Below are positions 19,009 through 52,906 of a stretch of 64,000 nt of DNA, one piece after another. Location of the stretch: IMG/VR virus record IMGVR_UViG_3300025530_000290; one strand, given 5' to 3'. Each line of letters starts with the position of its first letter. Within the stretch, counting starts at the first letter, position 1. The notes beneath the pieces are model-generated. The model did no database searches, was not told where the DNA came from, and worked only from the letters and a program-made list of their open reading frames with translations. This stretch comes from an uncultured virus (IMG/VR IMGVR_UViG_3300025530_000290) (taxonomy: Duplodnaviria; Heunggongvirae; Uroviricota; Caudoviricetes). Both the position numbers and the translations under genes were made by a program.

Positions 19009-19428
19009 TTGCGAAACCCGCGAGACGACACACCCCTCGGCTACCACCTAGACAAGCGGCGCCAGGAACTGCAGCTGTCGTGGGAAGAGGTCGCTGACCG
19101 GGTTGGTGTCACCACCGGGCACCTCCGGCGCATCCGCAAAGGGCTAGCCCGCTTCTCCGCACCTGTAGAGGCCCGGCTGGAGGACGTGATGGGCTGGCAG
19201 CCCGGCAGCATCCGGGAGATCATGAAAGGCGGCCGGCCAACACTTCGCGCCCCCCAACCGGCGGGCCAGCTCGCGATCGAACTCGTCGATCTCGGCGACG
19301 GGAGCACGGTCACCGTCCCAGTGCCGCCTGGGCTCTCAAAGCACGCCAGGAGCATCGTGGTTGAACAGGCGAGGAAAATCGCGGAGCAGCTGGCGGGGAT
19401 TGAGGGATTAAGGCACACACGCCATTAG
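19009..19428 (+). CDS. Immunity repressor (XRE HTH)
   Basis: TTG start after GGAGG; LDKRRQELQLSWEEVADRVGVTTGHLRRIRKG...GWQPGSI; upstream of int. Confidence 0.75.
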   Translation: MRNPRDDTPLGYHLDKRRQELQLSWEEVADRVGVTTGHLRRIRKGLARFSAPVEARLEDVMGWQPGSIREIMKGGRPTLRAPQPAGQLAIELVDLGDGSTVTVPVPPGLSKHARSIVVEQARKIAEQLAGIEGLRHTRH

Positions 19429-27431: not shown

Positions 27432-28922
27432 GTGAGCGGCGACGAGAACGTCGTGTCGATCACGCCGACGATCCCCAAGCCGCCGCCGATGGCGCCGCCG
27501 CCGCACCTGCTCCTGCCCGGCCCCGGCGAACCCGGCAAGGACGACAAGAACAGCAAGGACAGCGGGGAGCTGCCGTGGGGCGACGAGCAGCAGCCCGGCG
27601 AGGACGAGCTCACCCCGCCCCCAGTGGACAACCCGGACAACCCCACCCCCAGCGAGGTGCTCGCCACCCTGCTGGCCGTGCTCACCGCCATGGGCGTGGC
27701 CGGGGCCCGGCGCCTGTGGCTGCAGATGGGCGGCAAGGACACCGCAGGCCGCGACCGGCAGAACAAGACCGACCCGCGGACGCCATCGTCCCCGACCGGC
27801 CGGGACAGGTCGCGGTCGCCGCTCGGCGCGACCGGTCGCGACCGCTCCAGCCGCGACCGGACACGACCAGACCGGCGCGACCACGACCGGCCGCCATCCC
27901 GGCCGCGGTCACGCGACCACGACCGCGACCGCCGCAGACGCCGCGACCGGTCAGAGGATCCGGTCGCGACCGCCATCCGCAAGGCGGTCGCCGCCGCCCG
28001 CCGGCGAGCCGCCAAGAAGCGCGCCGAGGAGAAGGACGGCCCCTCCGGCCAGCCGCGACCGGACGACCAGCCGCGACCGGCACGGCGACCACCGCGGCGC
28101 CGCCCCGCCGGCGCGCTCCCCTCGACCCGCCGCCCCGCACTCGACCGCGGCCAGCCCACCCGCAAAACCCGCCGCGAACGAGCCTGGCGGCGCTGGCGGG
28201 CCCGACACCCCTGGTGGAAAGCCGCGACCAGGGCGGCCCGGGCACGCTCCAGCAGAACGACCGGCGCGACCGGCGCGGACGGGGGCACACGCGCCACCAC
28301 ACCACCGCCCCCACCGCCGCCGGGTGGCATGCGGCCACCACCCGGCGCCACCCGTATCTGGGCGGACGCCGAGGTCGTCGGCAAACACCCACACCGACCG
28401 CCGCAGCCGCCCCCGCCCGCGGCCGCCTACCGGCACAAACCCCCGCTACCACCCGGACCAGACGACCACACCGGGCACCCGCCGGCCACACGAGGAGCCC
28501 TCATGACAACCACCGCGCTCGCGCACACCGGTGCGCCGCCACGACACGACGACCCCGAGATCACCGTCCACGACGTAATCGAGGCAGGCCGCGACGCCGC
28601 GCAGGAAATCCAAGACGGCGCGGCGCTCGCAAACCGCCTCGTCGACATGGCCATCGGGCTCGGCGCGCAGTTCGACACGCTCCGCGCCGACGCCGCCGAG
28701 CTCAGCGTGCCCGGCACGCTCGTAGCCGATCTCACCGCGCTTTCCGAGCGTGCCGGCGTCATGCAGGGCATCGCCGCCGAACTCGCCGCTGCACTCATCC
28801 GCGCCGCCGACGCGGTACGCGCCGCGGCCGACACCGCAGAGCAGCACCATCGGCCGCTCGCCGACACCACCGCCGACCACGGACACGACCGCCCCGCCGA
28901 CGCCGACTACCACAAGGACTAG
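27432..28922 (+). CDS. Transfer-region protein: TM helix, Arg/Asp-rich repeat linker, helical C-terminal domain (possible internal start at 28503)
   Basis: GTG start; RDR repeats encoded by CGCGACC tracts; GAGGAG then ATG at 28503. Confidence 0.55.
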   Translation: MSGDENVVSITPTIPKPPPMAPPPHLLLPGPGEPGKDDKNSKDSGELPWGDEQQPGEDELTPPPVDNPDNPTPSEVLATLLAVLTAMGVAGARRLWLQMGGKDTAGRDRQNKTDPRTPSSPTGRDRSRSPLGATGRDRSSRDRTRPDRRDHDRPPSRPRSRDHDRDRRRRRDRSEDPVATAIRKAVAAARRRAAKKRAEEKDGPSGQPRPDDQPRPARRPPRRRPAGALPSTRRPALDRGQPTRKTRRERAWRRWRARHPWWKAATRAARARSSRTTGATGADGGTRATTPPPPPPPGGMRPPPGATRIWADAEVVGKHPHRPPQPPPPAAAYRHKPPLPPGPDDHTGHPPATRGALMTTTALAHTGAPPRHDDPEITVHDVIEAGRDAAQEIQDGAALANRLVDMAIGLGAQFDTLRADAAELSVPGTLVADLTALSERAGVMQGIAAELAAALIRAADAVRAAADTAEQHHRPLADTTADHGHDRPADADYHKD

Positions 28923-28925
28923 CCC

Positions 28926-29351
28926 ATGGCCGACGCCATCGCCACCACCAGCAGCAGAAGGAACGCGGTCTCCGCCGAGCTTGAGCGTGCCCGCTACCAG
29001 CGCATAGTCCAGCGGCTACCCCGCCTCGCCGAGGAGCTGAGCACGCTCGCCGAGCAGATCCGCCAGGGCGCCGCGTTCGTGGCCGGGTGCGCGGAGGCAA
29101 CCCGGCACCGCGCCGAGCAGATGGCCGCCCTGCGCGTTGACACCGACACCGTAGGCCGCCACTACGAGGCCGCCACCGCCATGGAACAGGCGCGTAGCCT
29201 CGTCGACCGGCTGGCCGCGACGATCGCCGAGATAGCCACCGCGGCCAACCACACCGCCGCCGCTCACCGTGGCCAGTACGGGGGCGTCGCCGAGGCCGCC
29301 CGCTCTATGGCGGTGGAGCAGGCCGACCCGAGGTTCTACGCCAACCGGTGA
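28926..29351 (+). CDS. Helical transfer-region protein
   Basis: Ala-rich helical ORF, GTGA-coupled to traB. Confidence 0.6.
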   Translation: MADAIATTSSRRNAVSAELERARYQRIVQRLPRLAEELSTLAEQIRQGAAFVAGCAEATRHRAEQMAALRVDTDTVGRHYEAATAMEQARSLVDRLAATIAEIATAANHTAAAHRGQYGGVAEAARSMAVEQADPRFYANR

Positions 29352-31648
29352 TCGCTGTGACGCTGGCTCACCACCGCACCCGGGACGTCCGCACCTGGCC
29401 CGCCTACACCCGCACCCGCCGCCGGATCGCCCGCCTGCAGGACGTCACCGGCCGTGCCGCCACACTCGCCGGGCTCGCCCTCGGCGGCACCGGCATGCTC
29501 CTGCCCGACGTCGCCCTGCCGGGTCTCGCGGCCGCCGCGCTCACCACCGGGGCCGGGCTGGCCACCTTGCGGGCGTGGCGACCGGCCGGCGTCACCAAAG
29601 CCACCGCGACCGCCATGTACGCGCTGCCGGGCGCGGGACTGTGCGCGCTCCTCGGCTGGGAAGCCCTCGTCGGCGGACCGCACTGGGGCATGGCGCTCGG
29701 CCTGCTCACCTGGGTCACCGGAACCTGGGCGATCCGCCCCGCATGGGCCGCCCGCCGCATGCTCGTCGGCCCACCCCCGCAGCCCGAGCTCGTGCCGCCC
29801 GAACCCGCCGCCGAACTCGAACCACCCGCCACACATAGCGCGGCGCGTTGGTGGGCCGAGCACGCCGCCACCGAGGACGGGCCCGCCCCCGGCACCATGC
29901 TCCGCGAAGTAGAGCCATACGGATCAGGGGTGCGCGCGATCATCACCTCAGCGCACCCCGGCCGCCCCGTACCCGACATCAACATCCCCGCCCTGTCCGC
30001 CCTCCTGGACGTGCCAGAGGACCACATCCACCTCGGCCCCGTCCCCGGCCGCGGCGCCGGAGTCCGCCAGCTCACCATCGGCGCACCACGCCAGAACCAG
30101 CCGGCCACCACAGCCGAGGCGTGGCGCGCCCAAATCGCCCCCGCCGCCATGCGCGACTCCGAGCTCGTCGAGGTGCGGTACGGCACCGGCACCCGCGAGG
30201 GAGTGGTCGAGTTCCACGCCGAAGTCCCCCGCGGAAAAACGATCACCTACGACTTCGGCGCGCTCGTCTCCGCCCTCGACGCCGAGGACGACCCATCACG
30301 AGTCGTCGTGGAGGCCAGCTACCGCAAGGCGATCGTCACCCTCTACCCCCGCAACCCGCTCCTGGACATCCAGCCCGTCACCCTCAACGAGCTGCTGATG
30401 GACGAGCGCGGCTACATCACCGTCGGCCTCTACCACAACGGCCGCCCCGCCCAACTGCGCCTCTACGACCCCGAAACCGGATCGGCCCAGCGTTTCCTGC
30501 TGTTCGGCACCACCGGCGCCGGCAAGAGCCGCACACTCCAACTCCACCTCGCGGCGGAGAAACGCAACGGGATCTGCTCGCTCGTGGCCGACCTCAAGGG
30601 CGGCCAGTCCGTGCCCGAGGCGCTGCAGAACGTGTGCTGGCCCGTCACCAGGCAAGAGGCGGCGATCATGATGCTGCGGTCCGCGGCCGCTGTCGCCGAG
30701 GACCGCATGCGCCGCTACGCCGCCCAAGGCCGCAACGCATTCGAACTCGGCGTCGATCCCCTCATCCACGTCACGATCGACGAGGCCAACCGGCTGCTCG
30801 AGACCGGCGCGCCCTACCGGGACGAGGCCGTCCGCCTCATCAAAGAGATCGCGCGCACCGGCCGCTCGGTTGGTGTCGGCATCCGCCTCGCGGCCCAGGC
30901 ATCCCACCTCGACGAGCTGGGCGGCAGCGACACCATGCGCGGCCTGCTCAAAGAGGGCGAGGTCACGCTGCTGCGCTGGTCGTCCTCGATGATGCGGCAG
31001 CTCGTCGCCGACGGCCTCCTGCCGCCCGGCGTGCAGCTCACCCCGATCCCCAAACGGATCGGCACCACCCCCCTGGTCAGCCAGTTCGACGAGGCCGGCG
31101 CCGAGGACGCCGGCGAGGGCACCCAGGGCATGGCCTATCTGCTGTCGGGCGCTCACCCGACGAGCCTGATGCGCCATTTCAGAGTCGGCGCCGTCGAACC
31201 AACACGCGGGCTCGACCCCGAGATCCTCGCCCTCTACGGGCCCGAGCCGCCGGTCGAGCTCGGCCCGGAGGACGCCGCCGCGGCTGGTGAGGCGTACGCG
31301 CTCCGCCACGACGAGGACGCCGTCGTGCGTCTCTTCTTGGGCCAGACCAGCCAGCCATCTGGCGCTGCGCGGCCTGCCGCGGCGCCGCAGACCACCCCGC
31401 CCGCCCAAACCAGTCAGGCACCCGCTGTGGCGCCGCGGCACCTCAACGACCGCATCCTCGACGCCCTCCGCGCCGCCGGCCGATCCCTCACCGCCGCCGA
31501 GGTGCTCGAGATCGTCAACGCCGACGGCGGCCGCACGGTCGCGCTCGGGTCGATCCGCAACGCGCTCTCCCAGCTCGCAAACCAGGGCCAGGCCGTGCGC
31601 ACCGAGCACGGCCACTACACCATCCCGCAGGAAGGAGACAACAAGTGA
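29348..31648 (+). CDS. FtsK/SpoIIIE-family conjugative DNA translocase (TraB-like)
   Basis: N-terminal TMs; Walker A GTTGAGKS; DLKGG; Walker B VTIDEA; GRSVGV..RLAAQ; C-terminal wHTH. Confidence 0.85.
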   Translation: MIAVTLAHHRTRDVRTWPAYTRTRRRIARLQDVTGRAATLAGLALGGTGMLLPDVALPGLAAAALTTGAGLATLRAWRPAGVTKATATAMYALPGAGLCALLGWEALVGGPHWGMALGLLTWVTGTWAIRPAWAARRMLVGPPPQPELVPPEPAAELEPPATHSAARWWAEHAATEDGPAPGTMLREVEPYGSGVRAIITSAHPGRPVPDINIPALSALLDVPEDHIHLGPVPGRGAGVRQLTIGAPRQNQPATTAEAWRAQIAPAAMRDSELVEVRYGTGTREGVVEFHAEVPRGKTITYDFGALVSALDAEDDPSRVVVEASYRKAIVTLYPRNPLLDIQPVTLNELLMDERGYITVGLYHNGRPAQLRLYDPETGSAQRFLLFGTTGAGKSRTLQLHLAAEKRNGICSLVADLKGGQSVPEALQNVCWPVTRQEAAIMMLRSAAAVAEDRMRRYAAQGRNAFELGVDPLIHVTIDEANRLLETGAPYRDEAVRLIKEIARTGRSVGVGIRLAAQASHLDELGGSDTMRGLLKEGEVTLLRWSSSMMRQLVADGLLPPGVQLTPIPKRIGTTPLVSQFDEAGAEDAGEGTQGMAYLLSGAHPTSLMRHFRVGAVEPTRGLDPEILALYGPEPPVELGPEDAAAAGEAYALRHDEDAVVRLFLGQTSQPSGAARPAAAPQTTPPAQTSQAPAVAPRHLNDRILDALRAAGRSLTAAEVLEIVNADGGRTVALGSIRNALSQLANQGQAVRTEHGHYTIPQEGDNK

Positions 31649-32508
31649 CCAGCAACCCGACGTTCGAACAGGTCGCCCGGCACCTCTTCCAAGACACCCT
31701 GCCCCGCCGCTACACCACCCTCTACCTACTCCCCGCCCTCATGACCGCGGCAGGCGCCGCACTCGGCCTGCTGCTCGGCTGGCTGCCGCACAGCACGATC
31801 ATCGGCACCGCCACCCTCGTCGCCGCCTACACCGCCGCCACCAGACGGGATCAGCGTCCTGCTTTCGCCCCCGCCAGCGCGGCCGCATACCTCCAGCGGC
31901 TCCGAACCGAACTCCCCGGCGACGCCATGGACGCCATCGCGGACGCGGTCGCCGAGTGCAAGACCCGCGGGATCGAGGCCGACGTGTACCGGATCACCTG
32001 TGCCTGCGGCCAGATCATCTGCACGTGTGAGAACCGGGTCCGCGCCGCCGTCGCCCCCTTCGGCCCGCGGTACGCGATCATCGCCGTCGGCGACCGCCTC
32101 GCCGACACCACCGGCCAGCTGCGGTTCGTGCTCGCCCACGAGCTCGGCCACCTCGCCGGCTTACACCGCGTCTCCCAGAACGCGTGGCATGCCGCCAACA
32201 CGCTCGGCTTCGCGATCATCGGCCTCCACGCCACCGGCTGGACGCTAGTCACCGCGTTCATCACGTGGAGGCTCGTCTGCAGTCTCTGGTACGCGGTCAA
32301 CGAGGCGGCGTGCGACATCCGCGCCGCACGGCGCTACGGCTATGAGGCCGCCGCCTACTGGAAGCGCCGCGTCGAAGCCGCGCGGCTGGCGCGCTCGGCC
32401 CGGCCGGTGTGGCATCGGCTGGTGGCGTTGCCGGTGCAGGTGCTGCCGATGCATCCGCCGCTGCGGGTGCGCGCCTGGTACTGCCGGATCGTCGGCACCC
32501 GGCGCTAA
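31645..32508 (+). CDS. Membrane Zn metallopeptidase (M48/M56-like)
   Basis: FVLAHELGH, NEAACD, MHPPLRVR; TM helices. Confidence 0.8.
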   Translation: MTSNPTFEQVARHLFQDTLPRRYTTLYLLPALMTAAGAALGLLLGWLPHSTIIGTATLVAAYTAATRRDQRPAFAPASAAAYLQRLRTELPGDAMDAIADAVAECKTRGIEADVYRITCACGQIICTCENRVRAAVAPFGPRYAIIAVGDRLADTTGQLRFVLAHELGHLAGLHRVSQNAWHAANTLGFAIIGLHATGWTLVTAFITWRLVCSLWYAVNEAACDIRAARRYGYEAAAYWKRRVEAARLARSARPVWHRLVALPVQVLPMHPPLRVRAWYCRIVGTRR

Positions 32509-32665
32509 GCCGGGGACCGCACCCGCGGGCGTGGCCCTGGCACGTCACACACCGGGGCCACACACCACCCACGACATATAGCCGATTCGGCGAACTCCAA
32601 GCCGTCATCTTGTGCATCGTGGACAATAAGAGCGTTCCCCTTTCTCCCCTTCAGGAGATCACTCC

Positions 32666-33271
32666 ATGCCACAGCAGCCCGTGCTGTCGATTCTCCGGAT
32701 GCCACCCGGAGACCCGCTCACCGAACGCACCTGGCACGACACCCACCTCGCCCACGCCAAAGTGCTGGAATGGGCCGCAGACAGCCAACGCGTCCTGTGG
32801 GCCCGCCCCGCCAAGCAAATCCTGCTGATCCAATCCACCCGCCACGTCACCCCCAGCAACCTCCCCGCCGGCCACCACGTCACCTGGCGGCAGGTACGCA
32901 CCGACTGGGAACCCGGCACCCAAATCCGCTGGTCCCTCATCGCCAACCCCGCCAAAGCCCAACCCCGGCGCGACGGACCCGACGGGCGCTGCACCAGGCC
33001 GAGCCCCCGCGTGCCACTCCCGCCCGCCCAGCGCGACCAGTGGCTTCACCGCAAACTCGGCGCCGCCCTCACCATCACCCACATGACCGGGCAGCCACTC
33101 GGCCGCCGCACCGGCAACCGGGCCGGGCACCACATCGTCCACGAACTGCACTGCTGGGCAGGCCACGCCGTCGTCGCCGACAGCCACGCCCTCGCCGCCC
33201 TGATCACCCTCGGCGTCGGCCCCGGCAAGGCCTACGGCGCCGGGCTCCTCATCGTCCAGGAGGCCGCATGA
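32666..33271 (+). CDS. cas6e: Cas6e/Cse3-like crRNA processing endoribonuclease
   Basis: HLAH N-terminal His, RVLW...LLIQS, LIANPAK, QWLHRK, Gly-loop GVGPGKAYGAGLL; RBS AGGAG. Confidence 0.88.
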   Translation: MPQQPVLSILRMPPGDPLTERTWHDTHLAHAKVLEWAADSQRVLWARPAKQILLIQSTRHVTPSNLPAGHHVTWRQVRTDWEPGTQIRWSLIANPAKAQPRRDGPDGRCTRPSPRVPLPPAQRDQWLHRKLGAALTITHMTGQPLGRRTGNRAGHHIVHELHCWAGHAVVADSHALAALITLGVGPGKAYGAGLLIVQEAA

Positions 33272-34164
33272 CCTACCCATCCGGACCGGTGATGGTGTGG
33301 GAACTCGCCGGGCGCCCCAGCCGCGCCTCCATCCGCGTCGAACCCATCCCCGCCCCGTGCGCCATGTGCGGCCAGCACGCCGCCGAAACCGCCGCCACCA
33401 AAACCGCCATCGGCGGCAACTTCACCGACCAGTACCTGCTCGCCCGCCCCGACTCCCCGCGGATCTGCTACGCCTGCACCTGGGTGTGCTCCGGCAAACC
33501 ACCCGACACCATCCGCATGTGGACCGTCGCCGCTGCCCCCGGCCGCGGCTTCGGCCCCTCCCACCCCAAATCCCCCGGCTGGGGCAACAGCGACCTGCTG
33601 CTGACCGCCCGCAACGACATGCGGGAGGTGGTCGCCCTGCTCGCCGACCCACCCGACGGGCCATGGCTGGTGTCCATCGCCGAGACCGGGCAGAAACACC
33701 ACCTGCCGTACGCGCGGATCAACCACGGGCAGGCCCGGTGGACGGTGCGGATGGACGCCGTCGACATCACCGCGACCCCCGCCCAGTTCCGGCACGTGTT
33801 CGGCCACACCGTGGCCCTCCGCACCGCGGGGTTCACCGCCGCCGAGATCGAGCAGCTGGCCCCGCCGGTCCACAAACTCACCGCCGGCAACCTGCCCATC
33901 TGGCGGCACCACGCCCAGCAGCTGGCCCCCTACAAGGGCAGCGCGCTCCTCCACCTGACCAACTTCGTGATCAACAAGGAGCACCTCAATGAATACGCCA
34001 CCGCCTACGGCGCCCCCGGACCTCGACACGATGATCAGCTGGGGCAGCCAGCTCATCAACGCCCTGCTGGACACCCCCGGCGTGGCCCAGACCCTCGGCC
34101 GGGACCTGTGGACACGGGCCCGCACCGCGCTGGAGACGGGCTGCTCGACGGCGTCCTTTTCTGA
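33268..34164 (+). CDS. csf1: Type IV large subunit Csf1 (Cas8-like)
   Basis: CAMC...NFTD...CYAC zinc finger, GQKHHLPYA; ATGA-coupled to cas6. Confidence 0.8.
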   Translation: MTYPSGPVMVWELAGRPSRASIRVEPIPAPCAMCGQHAAETAATKTAIGGNFTDQYLLARPDSPRICYACTWVCSGKPPDTIRMWTVAAAPGRGFGPSHPKSPGWGNSDLLLTARNDMREVVALLADPPDGPWLVSIAETGQKHHLPYARINHGQARWTVRMDAVDITATPAQFRHVFGHTVALRTAGFTAAEIEQLAPPVHKLTAGNLPIWRHHAQQLAPYKGSALLHLTNFVINKEHLNEYATAYGAPGPRHDDQLGQPAHQRPAGHPRRGPDPRPGPVDTGPHRAGDGLLDGVLF

Positions 34165-34408
34165 AGCCGTCTCCAAAACCGCGGCGAAACTGCAGATCGA
34201 CGGCGCCCTGCCCGCCAAGACCAGCGAGGAGATCGTACGGCTCGGCCGCCACCTCGCCGACCCGGCCGTCTTCGGGGCGTGGGCCGAGCTCATGCGACGC
34301 GACGCCGTCTACGTCATCGCCATCGCCCGCGTCGACCGCAAAACCCGCAAACCCGCCACCAGCACCGTCACCAGCGCCGACGACGACACCGAAAGGGTCC
34401 CGTTCTGA
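33989..34408 (+). CDS. cas11: Type IV-B small subunit Cas11-like
   Basis: 139 aa all-helical (FSEAVSKTAAKLQI); RBS AAGGAG; sits between csf1 and csf2. Confidence 0.72.
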   Translation: MNTPPPTAPPDLDTMISWGSQLINALLDTPGVAQTLGRDLWTRARTALETGCSTASFSEAVSKTAAKLQIDGALPAKTSEEIVRLGRHLADPAVFGAWAELMRRDAVYVIAIARVDRKTRKPATSTVTSADDDTERVPF

Positions 34409-35358
34409 TGACCAGCGACCTGCACGCCCTGCACGCCCTCCCCGACCTTCACCTGCCGCTCACCCTCACCGCCCTCGACCCCATCTCCCACGGCGCCGGC
34501 ACCAGCGGAAACACCCAGCTCCTGCGCGTCCAAGACGTGCTCCAGCCGGACGGGCGGCGCGTGTCGGTGCCCTACATCTCCGGAAACAGCCTGCGGCACA
34601 CCCTCCGTGCCGCCCTCGCCTGGCACCTGGTCCGCACCCTCGACCTGCCCGACCGGGCCCTCCCCAAGAACGTCGTCGACCTGCTGTGGTCCGGCGGCGC
34701 CTTGTCGGAGACCGGCAACCAGGTCGACCTGGAGACCGCCCGCCGTGTCTCCGCGACACTCCCGGCGCTGTCGCTGCTGGGCTACTCCGCCCGCAGCGAC
34801 ATCGTCGCCGGCACCCTGTGGGTGGACAACGTCCACCTGGTGTGCGCCGAGAACGTCTTCCGCCTCCCCGACCGCCTCACCGGCCACCCCCACGCCGACC
34901 TGCCCGCGGGGGCGATGCGCGGCGAGGCGTTCGGCACCCGCCACGACGTGCGCGGCACAGCCGTCGACCGGTACATCGCCATGCTCGCCGACCACGGCGA
35001 GACCGGCATGCTCGGCCTCAACACCGCGGCGGACGCCGAACCGGCCACCACCCAGATGATCTACGACATGCAGGTGATCAAACCCGGCGCTGTCCTGTGG
35101 ACCGGCCTGCACCTGCTCACCCCCACCCCCGGCCACATCGCCGCGCTCGCCGTCGCCATCGACGAAGCCATGCCCATCGTCGACGGCCGCCGCATCCTCG
35201 CCCTCGGCGGCAAACGCTCCACCGGGTACGGCTCCTGCGCGGCCGACGTCGACCTTGCGCCGCTCGGGGACCTGGCCGCGCTGCGCGCCGCCTACGAGGC
35301 GCACCTGCGCGAGCACCGCGACACCATCATCACCATGCTCAAGGACGTGGTGGGCTGA
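34408..35358 (+). CDS. csf2: Type IV Cas7-like backbone Csf2
   Basis: LTALDPISHG, VPYISGNSLRHTLR, LWSGGAL, QMIY, LGGKRSTGYG. Confidence 0.92.
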   Translation: MTSDLHALHALPDLHLPLTLTALDPISHGAGTSGNTQLLRVQDVLQPDGRRVSVPYISGNSLRHTLRAALAWHLVRTLDLPDRALPKNVVDLLWSGGALSETGNQVDLETARRVSATLPALSLLGYSARSDIVAGTLWVDNVHLVCAENVFRLPDRLTGHPHADLPAGAMRGEAFGTRHDVRGTAVDRYIAMLADHGETGMLGLNTAADAEPATTQMIYDMQVIKPGAVLWTGLHLLTPTPGHIAALAVAIDEAMPIVDGRRILALGGKRSTGYGSCAADVDLAPLGDLAALRAAYEAHLREHRDTIITMLKDVVG

Positions 35359-36095
35359 TGCTCGTCGAACCCGGCACCATCGTCGACACCACCACCGACA
35401 GCCGGTGGACACCCGTCCGGGTGACCGCACACCTGGCCGAGCCGATCATCAACCTCGACGGGCACGCCTGCCACCTGGACGGCCCGGCCGCATTCGCCGC
35501 CTACCTCGCCTACACCGACCGCCACGGACACCACTCGCTGCCACCGATGGGCCGCGACAGCGTCGTGGATTTCGCCCTCCCCCTGGCCACCTGGACCGCG
35601 CCCGCCCCAGGCCCGGTGCACCAGCTCGCCCGCGCAGCCACACCCGGCCACGTGTGGGGGTGGGCATGCTCGGCCGCCGCCGCCGACCCCGCCGCGTGGA
35701 CGGTGGTCGAGGTCCGGCGCAAGCCGGACTCCGAGGCGATGCACCGCTACGCCCCCGACCGCAAGGTCCACCTGGCCACGGGCCCGCTCAAGGCCCGCAA
35801 CGCCACCCACCCGGCCACCATCGTCCGCACCATCACCTGGTGGGCGCTGGCCGACCCCGACCGGCTGCACGCCCTGCTCTCCCGCGTCCCCGGCCTCGGA
35901 CGGCACACCCGCCACGGCAACGGCCGCGTCCACCGCTGGGAGGTCACCCCAGACCCGCGCGCCGCCACCCTGTGGCGGCGCCGCGTCTGGCCCGACCCGG
36001 ACGGCACACCCGACACGATCCGCGCCCCCTACCACCACCACACACGGCTCATGCCCTGCACCCCGCCACCACAGCGGGAGGAGGAGCGGTGCTGA
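35358..36095 (+). CDS. csf3: Type IV Cas5-like Csf3
   Basis: PVRVTAHL...HLDG, LPLA, WGWACS, GPLKA, LGRHTRHGNGRV..WEV, IRAPYHH. Confidence 0.85.
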   Translation: MLVEPGTIVDTTTDSRWTPVRVTAHLAEPIINLDGHACHLDGPAAFAAYLAYTDRHGHHSLPPMGRDSVVDFALPLATWTAPAPGPVHQLARAATPGHVWGWACSAAAADPAAWTVVEVRRKPDSEAMHRYAPDRKVHLATGPLKARNATHPATIVRTITWWALADPDRLHALLSRVPGLGRHTRHGNGRVHRWEVTPDPRAATLWRRRVWPDPDGTPDTIRAPYHHHTRLMPCTPPPQREEERC

Positions 36096-36880
36096 TCGAC
36101 TCCCCGCGCATCACCACCCGGGACCGCGCCCACTGGGCACGCATGGAGCACTACGACGACGTGCTGTCCCGCTCCCCGCGCCTCGACCGGCTCGCCGAGC
36201 AGGCCCGCGCAGCGGTCACCCGCTTCGCCGACGCCGGCGACTTCTACATCAGCGTCTCGTGGGGCAAAGACAGCGTCGCCGCCGCACACCTCGCGCTGCA
36301 GGTCGTCCCCGGCGCGCGCCTGGTGTGGGTGCGCTCCAAGCACTTCGAGATGCCCGAATGCGAGCAGGTCCGCGACGCCTTCCTCGCCACCCACCCCCAG
36401 GCCCGGTACGAGGAGATCGAGGTCGAACTGCGGAATCCCAAGCGGGGCGAGCCCGGATTCGACGAGCGGCATCTCGACCCGCACGCCGACCACCAGGACG
36501 TCCTGAAGGAGAACCTGACCGGCCGCTACGTCTCCGGGGTGCGCGCCGAGGAATCCCGCATCCGCCGCATCAGCGTCGGCCACCGCGGGCTGGTCACGCC
36601 GAACACCTGCCGACCGCTGGGCCGGTGGGAGGCGACCGACGTGTTCGCCTACCTGCACCGGGAAGGGCTCCCCGTGCACCCGGCCTACGCGATGACCATG
36701 GGCGGCGCCCTCGACCGGCGGTGGATCCGCGTCCACCCGCTGTGCTCGGCCCCGCCCGCCCAATCTGCCGTGCACCGCCACGACCCCGCCTACTGGGAGG
36801 ACACCTACTACCCGGACGTGATCGCCGCCGCCCGGGACGCCCGGGCACACATGTGGGGCAAGAACGGTGTGGCCGGCTGA
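36089..36880 (+). CDS. cysH: CysH/PAPS reductase-like protein of type IV-B loci
   Basis: PP-loop SVSWGKDS, SGVRAEESRIR, PLGRWEATDVFAYL...LPVHPAY. Confidence 0.88.
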   Translation: MLIDSPRITTRDRAHWARMEHYDDVLSRSPRLDRLAEQARAAVTRFADAGDFYISVSWGKDSVAAAHLALQVVPGARLVWVRSKHFEMPECEQVRDAFLATHPQARYEEIEVELRNPKRGEPGFDERHLDPHADHQDVLKENLTGRYVSGVRAEESRIRRISVGHRGLVTPNTCRPLGRWEATDVFAYLHREGLPVHPAYAMTMGGALDRRWIRVHPLCSAPPAQSAVHRHDPAYWEDTYYPDVIAAARDARAHMWGKNGVAG

Positions 36881-37547
36881 CCGCTGCCCGGTGGCGATCC
36901 CCACCATCACCGCCCGCGCCGAATCCGCCGCCCGCGTCACCGGCTGGTGGCGTGCCCGCGGCGTCGAGCCCGTGGTCGAACTCCAGGACCCCGCCCTCCC
37001 GGTCGGCCCCGCCTCGCACGTGGCCACCTGCATGACGGTGATCCGCCGCGCCCTCGACGCCTTCCCGCAGGCGCGGCACCTGCTTTTGTGCGAGGACGAC
37101 GTCGAGCTCGACCCGGCCCTCCCGGGCCTGGCTTCCATGCTGCTGTGCGGCCGGGTCGTCACCCTGTGGACGACCCGGCTGGCGCACCTTCCGGCGTGGA
37201 TGGTGCGCACCGTCCAGCGAGGTGACCCGCTGCCGTCCCGCACGCTGGTGCGGGCGGTCGGGCTGCGGTCCTGGCACGGCAGTCTCGGCCTGATCCTTCC
37301 CCGGGATGTCGCCGAGCGGGTGCTCGCCGCGCCGGTACGGCGCGGCGGGTTCGACATGCATCTGAAGGACTGGCTGATCGAGCACGATGTGCCGCTGTGG
37401 GTGGCGGTGCCGAACTTGGTGCAGCATCTGCCGCTGCCGCGGCAGGCGACCAGGGGCGGTCCGCGGTGGGTGCGGTCAGCCACGTTCGGCTGGCCTGTCA
37501 CCGGTGAGAACACGCCGCGGGGCGCATCGGCTAGGGAGGAGCGGTGA
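36867..37547 (+). CDS. GT-A fold glycosyltransferase-like protein (GT25-like)
   Basis: HLLLCEDDVEL, GSLGLILPR, FDMHL..W, VPNLVQH; overlaps cysH stop. Confidence 0.65.
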   Translation: MWPADRCPVAIPTITARAESAARVTGWWRARGVEPVVELQDPALPVGPASHVATCMTVIRRALDAFPQARHLLLCEDDVELDPALPGLASMLLCGRVVTLWTTRLAHLPAWMVRTVQRGDPLPSRTLVRAVGLRSWHGSLGLILPRDVAERVLAAPVRRGGFDMHLKDWLIEHDVPLWVAVPNLVQHLPLPRQATRGGPRWVRSATFGWPVTGENTPRGASAREER

Positions 37548-37819
37548 CGCGGGCGGACGCGCAGGGCTTGGAGCGGAGGCTCTGGGAGCTTCTGCCTGGG
37601 CGTGCGGACCGGAACCGTGTGGCCGACGCTGCCGTCCTCGCGGCCAGGCTGGGTGTCCCGGTCGGCGAGGTGGTCGCTGCTCTCGACCGTATGGAGAGGT
37701 CCGGTCATGCTGTCCGGGACCGGGCCACGGGGAGGCGGTCGCAGCGGTGGCATCGCGGCTTGCCCTACCCGGATGCCGTTTCGGCGGGCGGTGGGGTCTG
37801 CCAGCCGGGCTTGTGGTAG
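37544..37819 (+). CDS. Small wHTH-like protein
   Basis: AVLAARLGVPVGEVVAALDRMERSG; GTGA coupling. Confidence 0.5.
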   Translation: MTRADAQGLERRLWELLPGRADRNRVADAAVLAARLGVPVGEVVAALDRMERSGHAVRDRATGRRSQRWHRGLPYPDAVSAGGGVCQPGLW

Positions 37820-37859
37820 CCGGCGTGGAACACGGTTGAGGCGGATCGAACCAAACCAC

Positions 37860-37888
37860 TTGTGCTTCCTAAGTTAGGAAGCTAATGT
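37860..37888 (+). promoter_or_regulatory. Sigma70-type promoter with palindromic operator in the spacer
   Basis: TTGTGC-17 nt-TAATGT; GCTTCCTAA-G-TTAGGAAGC at 37864-37882. Confidence 0.75.
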
Positions 37889-37940
37889 GGTTGTCACAGG
37901 TCAGGGGAACGGCCCCAGACCACGACCGGAAGGAACCGGC

Positions 37941-43194: not shown

Positions 43195-43283
43195 GCTCGC
43201 GCGCGAGCACATCCTCGCGGGTGATCATCGTTTCCGTTTGACATCCTCCCCCGCCTGAAGGCGGGGGATTCCAACCCGTCGCT

Positions 43284-44474
43284 CTACACAGAGAGGAGGA
43301 CGGGCTGAGGTTCGCGGTGCATCGGCCTGGCAACCCGAAGCCCTTCCCGCGCAGCCACCGCATGCCCTGCGGCGGTATCCCTGATGTTCCTGGCCGCGTT
43401 CACATCAGCGTTGGCGGCGTATCCGCAGGACCGGCACCGGTAACGTGCTTGGCTCTCGCGCGCTTCCCGGTCCACGATCCCGCACGCCGAGCAACGCTGG
43501 CTCGTGTACGCGGGATTGACCTTCACGACCCTTCCCGGAGCCTTGTGCTCCAGGCGGGTTACGAGCTGTCCCCACCCGGCGGCGAGGATGCTCCGGTTGA
43601 GCCCAGACTTCTGCCGGACGTTACGGCCCGGCGCGTCGAGGGTGCCTTTCGCCGAGCGGATCATGTTGGAGATCTTCAGGTCCTCGACGACGATCATGTC
43701 GAACCGGCGCGCGAGGTCGGTGGAGGTCTTCTCCACCCAGTCCTTGCGCCGATCGCTCTCACGGGCCCTCAGCCGGGCGATGGCCAGCTTGACCCGCGCC
43801 CGCCGGTTAGATCCTCGCTTAGCTCGGGCGAGTTTCCGCTGCAACCGGCGCAGCCGTGCTTTCTCCGTCTCGCGCAGGCCTGGCGCGGTCAGCAGTTCCC
43901 CGGTGGACAGCGCCACCGACACGGCGACACCCCGGTCCACCCCGACTATCTCGCCCGTGCCCGGCGCGGGGATCGGGTGTGGCGCGACGGCGAACGCCAC
44001 GTGCCAACGGCCCGCACGGTCCCGGGTGATCCGGTACGACTTCGCTTCCGGTGGAAGCGGGCGTGACAGGCGGAACCGCACCCATCCCGCTTTGGGCACC
44101 CAGACCTCGCCGACCTTCCGGGATACCTTGCGTACGCGGTAATCCTTGCCGACGACACGGAATCCCTCATGCCGTCCCGCCTTGCGCCAGGTCGGCCGCC
44201 TGTGCGTCCCGGCGAAGTAGTTCGCCATCGCCTGGGCGAAGTCCCTGAGCGCCTGCTGCTGGATGTTCACCGACCCGGCGCGCAGCCAGTCGAACACGGC
44301 GCGGGCCTCGGTGAGCTGGCGGCACTGCTCGGCGAACCCTGGCGCGGACCTGCGGCCCGGACGCCAAAACGACTGCTGTTCGACAGCGAGGTTCCACACG
44401 TACCGGGCGTGCGCGCAGTGCAGAAGCATCTGCTGCTCCTGCTGCGGCGTGGGGTACATCCGAAACCTCGACAT
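43284..44474 (-). CDS. tnpB: RNA-guided endonuclease TnpB
   Basis: RFRMYPT, VGVDRG, VVEDL, YTSQRCSACG, CRSCG, NADVNAARNI. Confidence 0.93.
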   Translation of the reverse strand: MSRFRMYPTPQQEQQMLLHCAHARYVWNLAVEQQSFWRPGRRSAPGFAEQCRQLTEARAVFDWLRAGSVNIQQQALRDFAQAMANYFAGTHRRPTWRKAGRHEGFRVVGKDYRVRKVSRKVGEVWVPKAGWVRFRLSRPLPPEAKSYRITRDRAGRWHVAFAVAPHPIPAPGTGEIVGVDRGVAVSVALSTGELLTAPGLRETEKARLRRLQRKLARAKRGSNRRARVKLAIARLRARESDRRKDWVEKTSTDLARRFDMIVVEDLKISNMIRSAKGTLDAPGRNVRQKSGLNRSILAAGWGQLVTRLEHKAPGRVVKVNPAYTSQRCSACGIVDREARESQARYRCRSCGYAANADVNAARNIRDTAAGHAVAAREGLRVARPMHREPQPVLLSV

Positions 44475-44502
44475 GGGACCATCTTAGCATCACAATGATC
44501 CC

Positions 44503-44703
44503 ATGAAGCATGTGAACCTGAGACTGCCCGACGATCTGCACGAGCGCGCCAAGGCCGCTGCCGCCGCCGACGACCGCTCCCTGAACTCCTGGTTGATCGC
44601 CGTAGTGCGGCGTGCCGTCGAAGAGGCTGAACGCCGTTCCGCCCAAGAGCGTAACGGCTTTCCTTGCCCTGCTCCGCAGGGGTCGCATTCACCCCCGGCC
44701 TGA
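44503..44703 (+). CDS. Ribbon-helix-helix (Arc/HicB-like) protein
   Basis: MKHVNLRLPDDLHERAKAAAAADDRSLNSW. Confidence 0.8.
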   Translation: MKHVNLRLPDDLHERAKAAAAADDRSLNSWLIAVVRRAVEEAERRSAQERNGFPCPAPQGSHSPPA

Positions 44704-44742
44704 AGGCCGGGGCACCCTGCGAAAGACCCTGTGGTCGTGGAA

Positions 44743-44779
44743 AAGGCCCCCGGCTCCAGATTCCGGAGCCGGGGGCCTT
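44743..44779. terminator. Rho-independent terminator-like hairpin
   Basis: AAGGCCCCCGGCTCC-loop-GGAGCCGGGGGCCTT. Confidence 0.7.
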
Positions 44780-44813
44780 ACCCGAGTGTGAGCGACGAGA
44801 GTGAGTGGCTAGG

Positions 44814-45302
44814 TCAGCTGGCGTCCCGCGGGCCGCGCGGGTTGGCCGGCGTGGTGCGGGTCGACTGCGGCGCCGGGCTGGCGGTCTGCGACGGCTCCGG
44901 GGTGGCGGTCTGCGACGGCACCGGGGTGGGCACCGGCTTGACGCCGACCTGCTTGCACTCTACGACCCAGGTGCCGCGCCACTTGCCCGTGGCCGCGCAG
45001 TGCTTGGTGACGGAGCCGTCCCGCAGGTAGTACGGCGCCGGCCGCACGTCGGCCGGCTTCGGCTGGGGCTTCGGCTGGGCGGGGGCGACCACGATGCGCT
45101 CCTCCCGCCAGGTGCACGGGCGGCGCTTGGTGGCGAGGCGGACGGTGCCCTTGGTCTTGTGCGCGCACAGCGTCCAGGTCGTGACGGCGGGCTTGTGCGG
45201 CTTCGGCTTGGCGGGGGCGGTGGCGGCCGCGGCGGAGGGGACGGTGGCGATCAGAGCCGCGGCACCAAAAACCGCGGCGAGGATACGCTTACGGGACATC
45301 AT
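44814..45302 (-). CDS. Secreted Pro-rich protein
   Basis: Signal peptide MSRKRILAAVFGAAALIATVPSAAAA; 4 Cys; PTP-rich tail. Confidence 0.65.
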   Translation of the reverse strand: MMSRKRILAAVFGAAALIATVPSAAAATAPAKPKPHKPAVTTWTLCAHKTKGTVRLATKRRPCTWREERIVVAPAQPKPQPKPADVRPAPYYLRDGSVTKHCAATGKWRGTWVVECKQVGVKPVPTPVPSQTATPEPSQTASPAPQSTRTTPANPRGPRDAS

Positions 45303-45557
45303 GGTGAATCTCCAGAGAAAAGGGGATCCCCGAGCCATCTGGGCTCGATGTGACAATCATGCCACGGCCCAACCCCACACGTCCGGCATTTCCCGAAATA
45401 CACAAACCCGCTACCGGCACGCCAGAAAATGATCACAGCCTGCCCGGCGAAATAGACATACGGCGCACAAAACAAAAAAGGCGCCCTGCCCGCCCCACAA
45501 GGGGCAGGCAGGGCACACCACATCACCCCCGCAGAGGAGGCGACGCGGACCCGGTCA

Positions 45558-45830
45558 TCACGAGCCGGGCAGGCGGACCACCGTCGAATCCTCACTCTTC
45601 TGGTAGGTCGGCTGAGCCTTCCACCCGAGCAGGGTGCCGACCCACGGCCAGCGGGCCTCCAGCAGCCTGACCACCGTGTAGTAGCCGCTGATCAGAGCGG
45701 CGACGACCACCGCGGTGGCCGGCTCGACCGGCACCTCGACACCGAAGCTGGCGAGCCAGCTCACGGCAACGGGCACCCAGACAGCGACCCAGGTACGGAT
45801 CAGCGACGCGATCACGTCAGACAGGGACAT
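45558..45830 (-). CDS. Holin-like membrane protein
   Basis: SLIRTWVAVWVP...YYTVVRLLEARWPWVGTLLG; 2 TM; near endolysin. Confidence 0.75.
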   Translation of the reverse strand: MSLSDVIASLIRTWVAVWVPVAVSWLASFGVEVPVEPATAVVVAALISGYYTVVRLLEARWPWVGTLLGWKAQPTYQKSEDSTVVRLPGS

Positions 45831-45853
45831 GCGCCCCTCCTAAAAGCAGGGAA

Positions 45854-46417
45854 TTACCGGAGGTAGTAGCCGTGGCGGAAGTCGTAAGCCTTGGACTTCT
45901 CACTGTCACCGAGCTTGATCCACACCCGGTCGTGGGTGTTGTTCAGGAAATGGCCGTTGTAACCGCAGCCGGCGGTGTCACCCACGCCGTGGTTCATGTA
46001 CACGGCGTGAATCCGGTTGCCGAAACCGAAGGTGCGCGGGGTGCCCTGGCCGACGTAGACGCGGATCGTGTGCCGCGGCTGCAGCATCAGCTTGCCGTCG
46101 ACCTCGTCGACACCGGGCAGCGAGTTCACCGTGAAGGTGTTGCACCCCTTGTCGTTGGTGGCCCGGTTCGCTCGAGCCCACGAGTCCTCCACGACCAGGC
46201 CCTTGACGTTGACCGCAGACGGGCCGACGTTGCTGACGTCGACGTGCTCCTGGTTACGGTTCCAGAGCCGGTCGGGCCCGACGGCGTTGTAGCCGACCTG
46301 CCCGATCACCAGGCCATCGATGTCCCGCCGCGCCGCCGCGTGGGCGGTGGGCGCGGTCAGAGCCACCAGCAGCACAGCGGTAACGGCGAGCACGACGCCG
46401 CTGAGAATGCGTCTCAA
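45854..46417 (-). CDS. Secreted lamin-tail-domain-like protein
   Basis: TTG start after GGAGGA; signal peptide ...TAHAA; NQEHVDVSNVGPSAVNVKG, TIRVYVGQG, FLNN. Confidence 0.65.
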   Translation of the reverse strand: MRRILSGVVLAVTAVLLVALTAPTAHAAARRDIDGLVIGQVGYNAVGPDRLWNRNQEHVDVSNVGPSAVNVKGLVVEDSWARANRATNDKGCNTFTVNSLPGVDEVDGKLMLQPRHTIRVYVGQGTPRTFGFGNRIHAVYMNHGVGDTAGCGYNGHFLNNTHDRVWIKLGDSEKSKAYDFRHGYYLR

Positions 46418-46487
46418 AACTCCTCCAACACACAAAACAGCGCCCCCACCTTGAGGGCGCGTCCCAGGGAAGAAAGCCAATCTCCGA

Positions 46488-47351
46488 TCAGGACGTCTCG
46501 TCCTCGGGCGGCCCCCCATAGGCCACCAGCCGGACCTGAATCGAGGAGATCTCGGAGCGGATCCGCGCCATCAGCGCATCCGCGTCAATCGCCGCGTCCC
46601 GCGCGGCGAGCGCCTCGACGAGCGCCTTAATCGTGGCGTCCTGCGCCTCCAGCTTCGCCAGAATCTGCCGCGACAGGGACAGGAGCTCGCGCAGCCGCTG
46701 GTAGGCATCCTTGCAGTAGGCCCAAATCTGGCGGAACGCCGACCGCGGATCGATACGGTGCCCCTCGGCGAAAATGCCCTCACGCTCGGCCCACACACCC
46801 TTGGCGACCGTGTGGGTGAGCCGCTTATAGACTTCCTCGGCGATCTCCTTCGCGCTGGGCATGCCGTCGTCCTCCTTATAAACCGGATATCCGTAGCCGT
46901 AGATCCGCGAGCTCGACCGGGCGACAGTCTTGCTGTAGACGCCGTCACCGTTGAAATAGGCCCCATTCAGCGTGCCAGAGGTGTTCCCGCCGATCGTGAC
47001 GATCGAATCCGCGGTGACCCTTTCCACCCACTCCACGTGGGTGCCGCCGTCCGGCCCGTAATAGACCATCGCCCCGGGCTTAGGCGTTTTACCGAACTGG
47101 CCGCGTTTTTTGAACCAGTCGACGCCGTTGAGGCAGCTTGCGGTCCACGGGAAATCCTCGCCCGGCTTCAGCCCGGCGCGTTTGAGGCAGACCGACAGGA
47201 AGCTGTGGCACCAGGGGTAGCCGTAGCCGTCATGCGGGTAGCCGGGGATCCGCCCGAATTCACGGTTGAAAACGGTGTCGTTCGTCCCCGTCTCCCGATA
47301 CCCGATATGCCGCTTGAGCTCTCTGCGGACGGCTTCCACAGTGGGCATCAC
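46488..47351 (-). CDS. Endolysin, CHAP domain
   Basis: YPWCHSF...PKPGAMVYY...THVEWVE...IGGNTS...YGYGYP. Confidence 0.85.
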   Translation of the reverse strand: MMPTVEAVRRELKRHIGYRETGTNDTVFNREFGRIPGYPHDGYGYPWCHSFLSVCLKRAGLKPGEDFPWTASCLNGVDWFKKRGQFGKTPKPGAMVYYGPDGGTHVEWVERVTADSIVTIGGNTSGTLNGAYFNGDGVYSKTVARSSSRIYGYGYPVYKEDDGMPSAKEIAEEVYKRLTHTVAKGVWAEREGIFAEGHRIDPRSAFRQIWAYCKDAYQRLRELLSLSRQILAKLEAQDATIKALVEALAARDAAIDADALMARIRSEISSIQVRLVAYGGPPEDETS

Positions 47352-47656
47352 GCGCCTCCCTGCAAGCGCAGCGCGATCATCAACGCCGCACCCACAACCG
47401 TCACCACCAGCGATAACGCGGCCGTCAACAGCGCACCCGTCACCATCCGCCGATCTGCTGCGCGCCGCTCCCGCTCCGTCCGCAGATCGTCACGGATCTG
47501 CGCGATCGCCTCCTGCGTCGCAGCCAGGTGCGCGTTATGCAGATCGCGGGTGATCATGTGGCTCATCTGCTCGCAAATCTGGTCAAGCCGCCGCGACACC
47601 TCCGCCTCGAGGCGCTCCAGCGTGCGGGCGAGCTCGCCGAGGGTGGGCTGCTGCAC
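47348..47656 (-). CDS. Coiled-coil membrane protein of lysis cassette
   Basis: TLGELARTLERL..., C-terminal TM. Confidence 0.6.
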   Translation of the reverse strand: MQQPTLGELARTLERLEAEVSRRLDQICEQMSHMITRDLHNAHLAATQEAIAQIRDDLRTERERRAADRRMVTGALLTAALSLVVTVVGAALMIALRLQGGA

Positions 47657-47774
47657 GGGGACCTCCAACACGCCTCCCCTGAGAAACAAGAGGGCCGCCC
47701 GCGCTCCCCTCTACTGACGCACCCGGACAGCCCAGCCCAGGCGCACGCGGGCGGCACGACCCGAAAGCCAAAGA

Positions 47775-48206
47775 TCAGGAACCCAACAAGATCCCCGCGT
47801 TACGCAGCGACGTCTTCAACTCGATCAGATTCGCCCTCAGCCCCGACTGGCAGTCATCACGCAACGACCGGTACGCCGAGTGCAGCCCCTCAACCGTCTG
47901 AGGGGGATTGGACGGGGACTGAAACACCGGCACATCCGACACCGGGGCCGCCGGCTCGAACGGAATCTCCGGAGCCGGCTCCACCGGGAACGTGGTCCCA
48001 TCAGACTGGCGCACCATCAACTGACCGTTCGCCGCATACAGGTGCGCACCGCTCTCCGGAGCCGACGGTGTCGACCGGTTAGGGATGACCCACCCGGCCG
48101 ACGCCGTAGTCAGCGCCGACCGCCGCTGCACCAGGGCGGAGAGCTGGTCAACCCTCCGCCTGAGATCGGCGAGCTCCTTGAGGAGGTCGTCACGGTATTC
48201 AGGCAC
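47775..48206 (-). CDS. Minor tail protein
   Basis: Follows minor tail gene; DLLKELADLRRRVDQL; PSAPESGAHLYA. Confidence 0.6.
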   Translation of the reverse strand: MPEYRDDLLKELADLRRRVDQLSALVQRRSALTTASAGWVIPNRSTPSAPESGAHLYAANGQLMVRQSDGTTFPVEPAPEIPFEPAAPVSDVPVFQSPSNPPQTVEGLHSAYRSLRDDCQSGLRANLIELKTSLRNAGILLGS

Positions 48207-50064: not shown

Positions 50065-50169
50065 CGGCACCTCCCCGCACATCTATCTAATGTCTGAGGA
50101 TCGAGAGGGATGGGCTAACCCCACGGCTGAAGCCGGGGTGCTGCGCCCAAGAATTTCGATCAGACGAGG

Positions 50170-51249: not shown

Positions 51250-51264
51250 AGCGCCACCCCCCTG

Positions 51265-52903: not shown

Positions 52904-52906
52904 GCC

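Follow-up and report, generated by a model that had tools for sequence, protein, structure and literature searches.

In the present study, we analyzed a 64,000-nucleotide stretch of DNA (hereafter, the window) from an uncultured virus of the class Caudoviricetes (IMG/VR record IMGVR_UViG_3300025530_000290) and examined a CRISPR-Cas effector operon at positions 32666-37819, which an initial sequence-only reading had described as phage-borne, type IV-B-like and equipped with its own Cas6e. Open reading frames alone were of little use because the window has a G+C content of about 72%. The coding frame was assigned from the G+C content at third codon positions (GC3), and the start codons were mapped separately. 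The results indicated that the region consisted of eight consecutive genes on the plus strand, preceded by a non-coding gap, as follows.

32509-32665, plus strand: non-coding gap 5' of cas6, 157 nt, with lower G+C and a falling coding signal
32666-33271, plus strand: Cas6e-family endoribonuclease gene, 201 aa (PF08798, 68 bits; PADLOC Cas6e, 2e-21)
33268-34164, plus strand: csf1, type IV large subunit, 298 aa (PADLOC Csf1_0_IV, 1e-37, residues 14-231)
33989-34408, plus strand: cas11, type IV small subunit, 139 aa (PADLOC typeIV_Cas11, 2e-12)
34408-35358, plus strand: csf2, Cas7 backbone subunit, 316 aa (PADLOC typeIV_Cas7, 2.8e-92)
35358-36095, plus strand: csf3, Cas5, 245 aa (PADLOC Csf3_0_IV, 1.1e-29; TIGR03116, 54.7 bits, below the cut-off)
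36089-36880, plus strand: cysH-like PP-loop enzyme gene, 263 aa (PF01507, 38.7 bits, 1.4e-9, cut-off 22.5; PHROG 2302, 3e-31)
36867-37547, plus strand: GT-A-fold glycosyltransferase (GT)-like gene, 226 aa (structure model, EDD motif)
37544-37819, plus strand: gene for a small, probable winged helix-turn-helix (wHTH) protein, 91 aa (weak MarR_2 match, E 0.0017, below the cut-off)

The junctions were ATGA between cas6 and csf1, TGATG at both cas11/csf2 and csf2/csf3, and GTGA between the last two genes, with overlaps of 7 nt between csf3 and cysH and 14 nt between cysH and the GT-A-like gene. The overlap-coupled operon proposed by the sequence-only reading was thus borne out, junctions included. 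Searches with profile hidden Markov models (HMMs) for Csf1, Csf2, Csf3, Cas6e and PAPS_reduct matched every family. The NCBIfam equivalogs casE, csf1, csf2 and csf3 all matched at scores below their cut-offs, indicating that the operon proteins are divergent family members. The start of cas11 was marked by AAGGAG ahead of its ATG, and GC3 moved to the cas11 frame near position 33960. In csf1, the stop codon is missing from its usual position (...NKEHLNEYATAYG), and the frame continues, out of register with cas11, for 176 nt (about 55 codons) into that gene (33989-34164), giving a Pro/Gly/Arg-rich tail that ends in LF. This tail was shared by the window and the related loci L003 (852-1033), L026 and L027 and was not seen in L028 or L029; homology of Csf1 with its relatives stopped near residue 243. 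Most Csf1 proteins finish in a conserved LLDLALW.ITK segment, and the subclade of the window has the out-of-frame LF tail instead. We considered a clamp-binding tail on Csf1 and rejected it, as neither the segment nor the LF tail was a clear clamp motif. The translation of the cysH-like gene contains SWGKDS, which we take to be the PP-loop motif, and no C-terminal ECGLH-type cysteine motif was visible in it.

The product of 36867-37547 had no sequence family match among the Pfam, NCBIfam, PADLOC and PHROG profiles. It had few close homologs, and E76-D77-D78 was invariant in their alignment. An AlphaFold2 model was of moderate quality (mean predicted local distance difference test score of 68.5, predicted TM-score of 0.71), with a well-predicted core and the last 45 residues disordered. 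The model yielded 49 PDB matches at E<=0.001 in Foldseek (top E value of 2e-6, TM-score of about 0.5), and among the matches listed, nearly all were GT-A glycosyltransferases or related nucleotide-sugar enzymes. The label of GT in the sequence-only reading was therefore backed at the fold level, together with an EDD (DXD-type) motif in the model; the names of the six genes from cas6 to cysH were confirmed by the profile searches, and the wHTH label of the last gene is probable.

The subtype was assigned from the Csf2 profile and the gene content. Among solved structures, the Csf2 profile matched the IV-B Csf2 of 7JHY best (2.3e-20) and a IV-C Cas7 second, and no IV-A chain matched at E<=0.01. 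The operon showed the IV-B traits, namely csf1, csf2, csf3, cas11-like and cysH-like genes, with no DinG/RecD gene, adaptation genes or array found. One trait usually ascribed to IV-B, the absence of Cas6, did not hold, as a Cas6e-family gene was overlap-coupled to csf1; the operon was therefore filed as a IV-B variant. These results supported the array-less subtype IV-B that had been proposed from the letters alone.

Tandem Repeats Finder, a repeat finder, a type I-E stem pattern, Rfam at E<=1 and a custom scan all failed to reveal a CRISPR array in the 64 kb of the window, and none was found in the 10.4 kb past its right end (L053). The Cas1, Cas2, Cas3 and DinG families had no match in the 76 other window proteins (Pfam) or the eight operon proteins. 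The absence of an array, cas1/cas2, cas3 and dinG from the 64 kb, as first noted from the letters alone, therefore held in repeat scans and profile searches. The sole CRISPR-like Rfam match was CRISPR-DR9 (25 bits, E 0.28) at 43236-43271, a GC-rich hairpin that immediately follows the 3' end of the tnpB gene (43284-44474, minus strand) of an IS605-type element; we rejected it as a CRISPR repeat and read it as part of the insertion sequence or a terminator. In the 23 sources scanned, no array lay within 10 kb of any related locus, and the only repeats were 15-nt-period pentapeptide-coding repeats or iterons. The sequence-only reading had named an array elsewhere on the element among the findings that would count against it. 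A complete phage relative with 127-bp terminal repeats (G884, 99,865 bp) could be scanned in full and contained no array-like repeat anywhere. A solitary host-like I-E repeat was likewise not found in L002 or L023 at <=3 mismatches.

To place the operon among its relatives, we scanned species genomes with the Cas6 alignment and viral contigs with the Csf2 alignment. The genome scan gave 24 loci, and csf genes adjoined cas6 in three of them: L002 (Corynebacterium), L003 (a Pseudonocardiaceae metagenome-assembled genome (MAG) whose proteins were 65-77% identical to those of the window) and L023 (Cutibacterium porci). The other 21 loci showed no tblastn match to the csf or cysH proteins of the window and were taken as ordinary Cas6e. 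The viral scan gave 18 loci, in which genes were called with HMMs built from the operon proteins. In 16 of these, cas6 lay directly upstream of csf1; one contig was cut inside csf1, and L042 had no cas6 match. The same layout was present in five actinobacterial genomes (G002, G003, G346, G642 and G713, the last with two copies), so the linkage of cas6e to IV-B genes, which the sequence-only reading had noticed in one element, recurred across the survey. One viral locus, L038, was the same DNA as L023. Among 50,697 records of isolated phages, a Csf2 relative was found only in Skermania phage SPI1 (34% identity), which had no recognizable Cas6 and grouped on the classical IV-B side.

For comparison, 14 classical IV-B loci were recovered as weak Csf2 matches. 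Classical IV-B, such as that of the Mycobacterium sp. JS623 megaplasmid (PDB 7JHY), and the window share the same five gene families (csf1-cas11-csf2-csf3 and cysH-like), and both lack an array, adaptation genes, a helicase and a nuclease. However, the operon of the window begins with a Cas6e-family gene, whereas adjacent cas6 was found in 0 of the 14 classical loci. The cysH gene of the window follows csf3 in the same direction; in the classical loci, it was divergent from csf1 in eight, co-directional in two, at a distance of about 3 kb on the same strand in one and not seen in three. The Cas6-bearing clade occurs on phages, whereas classical IV-B occurs on plasmids. In a quick Csf2 tree of 38 rows (five duplicate loci omitted; no IV-A, IV-D or IV-E rows), the 15 cas6-less rows (the 14 classical loci and SPI1) and the Cas6-bearing clade lay on opposite sides of a branch with a Shimodaira-Hasegawa-like approximate likelihood ratio test (SH-aLRT) value of 98, and L042 sat among the cas6-linked rows. 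The long branch of L023 in this tree was unreliable because its csf2 matched two overlapping frames; in this Cutibacterium porci prophage (L023/L038, 11161-12085), the split reflects a frameshift or a sequencing error. Collectively, the best explanation of these results is that the locus is an intact IV-B effector operon of a phage-specific actinobacterial clade, in which a Cas6e-family RNase is the constant first gene and the element is array-less.

Several further features were observed in the relatives. In L027, cas6 and csf1 are separated by a small LuxR/GerE-type HTH gene (3937-4497), and an IS605 tnpB gene lies just upstream of cas6. Within the operon or immediately behind it, L003, L033, L036 and L041 carry homologs of the small wHTH gene of the window (37544-37819). 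In one provirus record (L030), a Cse1 (I-E) gene at 17365-19236 on the minus strand and the cas6-IV-B operon are about 4 kb apart. In the classical locus L072 (G177), IV-B genes are on the same contig as, and a few kb from, I-E genes (Cse1 and Cas6e matches); the Mycobacterium sp. JS623 plasmid shows the same proximity.

The Cas6 protein was then compared with known Cas6e enzymes. PF08798 covered residues 10-197 (68 bits against a cut-off of 25), and the profile matched the structures of E. coli CasE and T. thermophilus Cse3 at 7e-15 to 1e-12; the score against the TIGR01907 casE equivalog was 26.7 bits (cut-off, 45.2). In the family profile alignment, His30 of the window protein lined up with the His of the E. 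coli CasE segment YQLHQG, which we take to be the catalytic His20, and the C-terminal glycine-rich loop was present (GVGPGKAYGAGLL). Across 13 database homologs, the His30 position was invariant and the GVGPGKAYGAGLL loop was conserved. Among the IV-B-linked Cas6 rows, the aligned His was kept in 18 of 19 (L036 has Arg) and the glycine-rich loop in all 19. These features placed the phage Cas6 in the Cas6e family and indicated, at the level of sequence, an active-looking enzyme. The window Cas6 thus shares PF08798, the aligned His and the C-terminal loop with I-E Cas6e (CasE/Cse3), but it falls below the casE cut-off, forms a separate tree group and is encoded with Csf rather than Cascade genes. 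In a quick tree of 31 rows (including the own Cas6e of two hosts; rows of <150 residues and duplicates omitted), a single branch with an SH-aLRT of 100 divided the 20 IV-B-linked rows from the 11 I-E Cas6e rows. This split suggests that Cas6 joined IV-B in a single, old acquisition. A recent capture of Cas6 from the host was ruled out by this split and by the distant host alignments described below.

We next compared the hosts. Cse1 was found in five of six carrier genomes (G002, G003, G346, G642 and G713), and these five also had a canonical Cas6e at 192-211 bits. Two prophage hosts each had, besides the phage copy (69 and 50 bits), a canonical Cas6e of their own (207 and 192 bits, respectively), together with Cse1 and long arrays of 61-nt period with at least 50 and at least 22 repeats. 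The Cse1 baselines among sampled genomes were 45 of 401 (class), 31 of 301 (family of G002) and 49 of 201 (family of G003). With stratified baselines, the probability of at least five of six was 3e-4, rising to 0.009 when the genomes were collapsed to one per lineage. Cse1 occurred in only 2 of the 14 classical IV-B carriers (G177 and G663), and a Fisher test of this count against five of six gave p = 0.007. These results indicated that hosts of the Cas6-IV-B phage clade usually carry type I-E. The trend is opposite to the negative I-E co-occurrence cited for IV-B as a whole in PMC7937560. Because the sample was small and the genomes were related, we regard the co-occurrence as a lead and not as proof; it provides circumstantial support for the use of host I-E CRISPR RNAs (crRNAs).

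On this basis, host-crRNA use is the best single mechanism for the Cas6-IV-B operon, and we favor it tentatively, at somewhat less than an even chance. We infer the RNA substrate, the assembly of the complex and the outcome as follows. Cas6 would bind and cut an RNA hairpin provided in trans, with the repeat hairpins of host I-E CRISPR transcripts as the most probable source, and would stay on the 3' hairpin. Csf3 (Cas5), the Csf2 filament, Cas11 and Csf1 would then assemble on the Cas6-cut RNA. The Csf complex might either keep crRNAs away from the host Cascade or be directed by them to nucleic acid. This nucleic acid would then be acted on by the PP-loop (CysH-like) enzyme together with a variable partner, which is the GT-A-like transferase in the window and a DNA methyltransferase in the relatives. 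In its stronger form, the phage Cas6e-like RNase would capture host I-E transcripts for the phage Csf complex as a counter-defense or guide-stealing device; either Cascade would be starved, or the spacer memory of the host would be turned on rival elements through the CysH-like and transferase enzymes. We consider this stronger form possible but doubtful.

Several observations weigh against host-crRNA use. One carrier genome, the MAG G004, had no I-E match. The co-occurrence sample consisted of six related genomes from about three or four lineages. None of the 67 spacers taken from the hosts G002 and G003 matched the loci in a meaningful way; the only match, of 19 nt, fell in an unrelated Cse1 region. 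In E. coli, classical IV-B did not load I-E crRNAs despite a co-expressed I-E Cas6 (Zhou et al. 2021, PMC7937560). Local alignments of the phage Cas6 with the host Cas6e of the same genome gave 43% identity over 35 residues and 29% over 119 residues, and because the two are only distantly alike, a shared repeat specificity is not readable from the proteins. Finally, the operon of the relatives sits in the replication/recombination module of the phage and is often coupled to genes for single-stranded DNA-binding protein (SSB) or DNA methyltransferase, a setting no less compatible with a function in the DNA metabolism of the phage. Upstream, the flanks contained YqaJ, RecT or ERF, SSB or DnaB genes; downstream were RusA, dUTPase, wHTH with iterons, and terminase genes. 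Four iterons were observed after a small wHTH gene just downstream of the operon in L034 (13337-13440) and L037 (13397-13500), followed in both by the shared sequence ATAAAGACAGTAAGTCAACCAGTAA; this region looks like a replication origin.

The module setting bears directly on a second explanation, in which Cas6 processes a phage hairpin RNA rather than a CRISPR repeat, and the product serves as a fixed guide or scaffold for a Csf complex acting in phage replication or gene control. The position between recombination/SSB genes and replication or origin-like elements (the iterons of L034 and L037) is consistent with such a role, as are the array-less element and the distance of the phage Cas6 clade from host Cas6e. 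However, a shallow RNA search found no conserved non-coding element 5' of cas6 in the window, L027, L028 and L029, and at Rfam E<=1 it returned only the hairpin beside TnpB. Furthermore, in several relatives, among them L034 and L039, the start of cas6 coincides with the SSB gene end or is only a few bases from it, so that an RNA 5' of cas6 would have no room there. We consider a phage-encoded hairpin substrate rather unlikely. The gap upstream of cas6 in the window (32509-32665), which showed no conservation against L027-L029, is the probable promoter of the operon itself. At the other end, between the operon and the next gene, we observed a long palindrome at 37854-37892 (AACCAC ... CTTCCTAA-G-TTAGGAAG ... 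GTGGTT), which could be an operator or a terminator.

The variable enzyme genes beside cysH were also informative. Within the operon or immediately behind it, L002, L023/L038, L034, L039, L041 and L043 carry a DNA methyltransferase gene, and the GT-A-like gene of the window and of L026, in which it lies between csf3 and cysH, filled the same slot. This arrangement points to nucleic-acid modification as the output and fits either guided or unguided action. If the action were unguided, the Csf filament would coat RNA non-specifically, the CysH-like and methyltransferase or glycosyltransferase enzymes would modify phage DNA or RNA, and Cas6 would be a structural cap or a general RNase. The shared slot suits such a machine, classical IV-B binds heterogeneous RNA (PMC7937560), and for CysH-like proteins, an ATP alpha-hydrolase activity with the potential to modify nucleic acid in the complex has been proposed (PMC8175902). 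Nevertheless, unguided modification leaves unexplained both the catalytic-looking Cas6 in 18 of 19 rows and the enrichment of carriers in I-E hosts. In addition, methyltransferases are common early genes of phages, so that their adjacency, seen in only 6 of about 19 distinct loci, is perhaps incidental. An unguided modification machine is judged unlikely, and host-crRNA use remains the reading that we prefer.

The question of whether the operon of the window belongs to the phage was addressed from the rest of the 64 kb, a Streptomyces-like region, which was organized as follows.

0-18.6 kb, minus strand: phage early genes (exonuclease, Gp3-like factor, RuvC, Lsr2, DnaN clamp, WhiB, methylase, repressor-like HTH)
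19999-21351: tyrosine integrase
21.4-45 kb: cargo-like genes with the operon (DUF397, GntR, anti-sigma-like ATPase, 766-aa FtsK/HerA-like ATPase, M48-like peptidase, APH-like kinase, IS605 TnpB)
45.5-64 kb, minus strand: late genes (endolysin, minor tail proteins, 1826-aa tape measure, major tail, head-tail connectors)

The order of late, lysis, cargo, integrase, repressor and early genes corresponds to the map of an unintegrated temperate phage, and the operon was therefore read as phage cargo. A different possibility is that the operon of the window is part of host DNA, or of an integrated island of its own, flanked by two blocks derived from prophages. Three features are in line with an island. 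The public provirus record G001 (window 43089-74249, with identity over window positions 44001-64000) leaves the operon out, the stretch of 21.4-45 kb contains non-phage-like genes, and the expected location of an attachment site, at about 21.4 kb, is the one towards which the integrase reads. However, the gene order matches a temperate phage map, no tRNA or host housekeeping gene was found in the 64 kb, and all relatives examined were in virus records or prophages; we regard an island or host origin as quite improbable. The phage-borne nature claimed by the sequence-only reading was thus upheld as likely, with phage genes on both sides and relatives that were clearly phage-borne, with the qualification that the public provirus ends at about 43.1 kb, without the operon. 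G001 itself extends 10 kb past the right end of the window, with major head protein, portal and terminase genes; a second tnpB gene (L053, 774-1922) lies beyond its terminase end, and G001 is thus bracketed by two TnpB genes.

Other genes of the window were noted in passing. Directly 5' of the operon, positions 28503-32508 (plus strand) encode two small unknown proteins, the 766-aa FtsK/HerA-like AAA ATPase and the M48-like peptidase; this block had no match to defense-system profiles. The phage encodes its own DNA polymerase III beta clamp (8521-9648, minus strand), beside Lsr2-like and WhiB-like genes. Two GT4-family glycosyltransferase genes (also annotated as GT4-conflict in Pfam) were located among the head-tail connector genes (61908-62897 and 63531-63995, minus strand).

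Previous studies have reported systems that resemble the operon in part. In the plasmid-borne subtype IV-A3, as in the window, a type IV effector is served by a Cas6e-lineage Cas6; IV-A3 has recruited this enzyme, its repeats are I-E-like, and there is a functional tie to host I-E systems (PMC7038947, PMC11656645). However, IV-A3 encodes a DinG helicase and carries an array of its own, with no Cas11 or CysH, whereas the window has Cas11 and a CysH-like protein, with no array or helicase found. The atypical IV-B of Fuxivirus, a Bathyarchaeia virus, is likewise virus-encoded and has a CysH-like gene; it differs in its archaeal host and its two-repeat mini-array, and the accessible text mentions no Cas6 (PMC10848311), whereas the window has Cas6 and no array was found. 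Pinilla-Redondo et al. 2020 (PMC7038947) recorded IV-B in prophages as well as rare instances of cas6 next to IV-B. In that paper, cas6 within about 1 kb of IV-B is given as 12 instances in the main text and 10 in Supplementary Data S1, and none of the 10 listed proteins, compared by eye only, had the KAYG[AC]GL loop of the clade of the window. In that work, such genes are regarded as exceptions rather than a clade. The claim of an undescribed system in the sequence-only reading was therefore overstated, as rare cas6-linked IV-B and prophage IV-B were already in print. Taylor et al. 2021 (PMC8175902) and Koonin and Makarova 2024 (PMC11656645) state that IV-B has no Cas6 and that its function is unknown, and the consulted passages of the 2025 classification update list no Cas6e-bearing IV-B variant. 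Full-text literature searches did not find a phage clade with a Cas6e-like gene as a constant part of IV-B. What is new here is the phage-borne, array-less IV-B branch with a constant Cas6e-family gene.

Ever since subtype IV-B was defined, its function has been an open question, mainly because the intended RNA of the complex is not known (PMC8175902, PMC7937560). A clade with a catalytic-looking Cas6 but no array gives a direct handle on this RNA substrate, and its natural hosts indicate I-E repeats as the first candidate. The variable enzyme slot beside CysH, occupied by a DNA methyltransferase or a GT-A-like transferase, provides a lead on the action of the complex after binding. A 2024 review considered it an enigma that the inhibitors recruited by viruses include CRISPR RNAs but apparently no Cas proteins (PMC11656645), and the Cas6-IV-B phage clade is a candidate counter-example. 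If the proposal is true, crRNA hijacking would represent a protein-based viral use of a CRISPR effector and would give IV-B its first defined RNA substrate.

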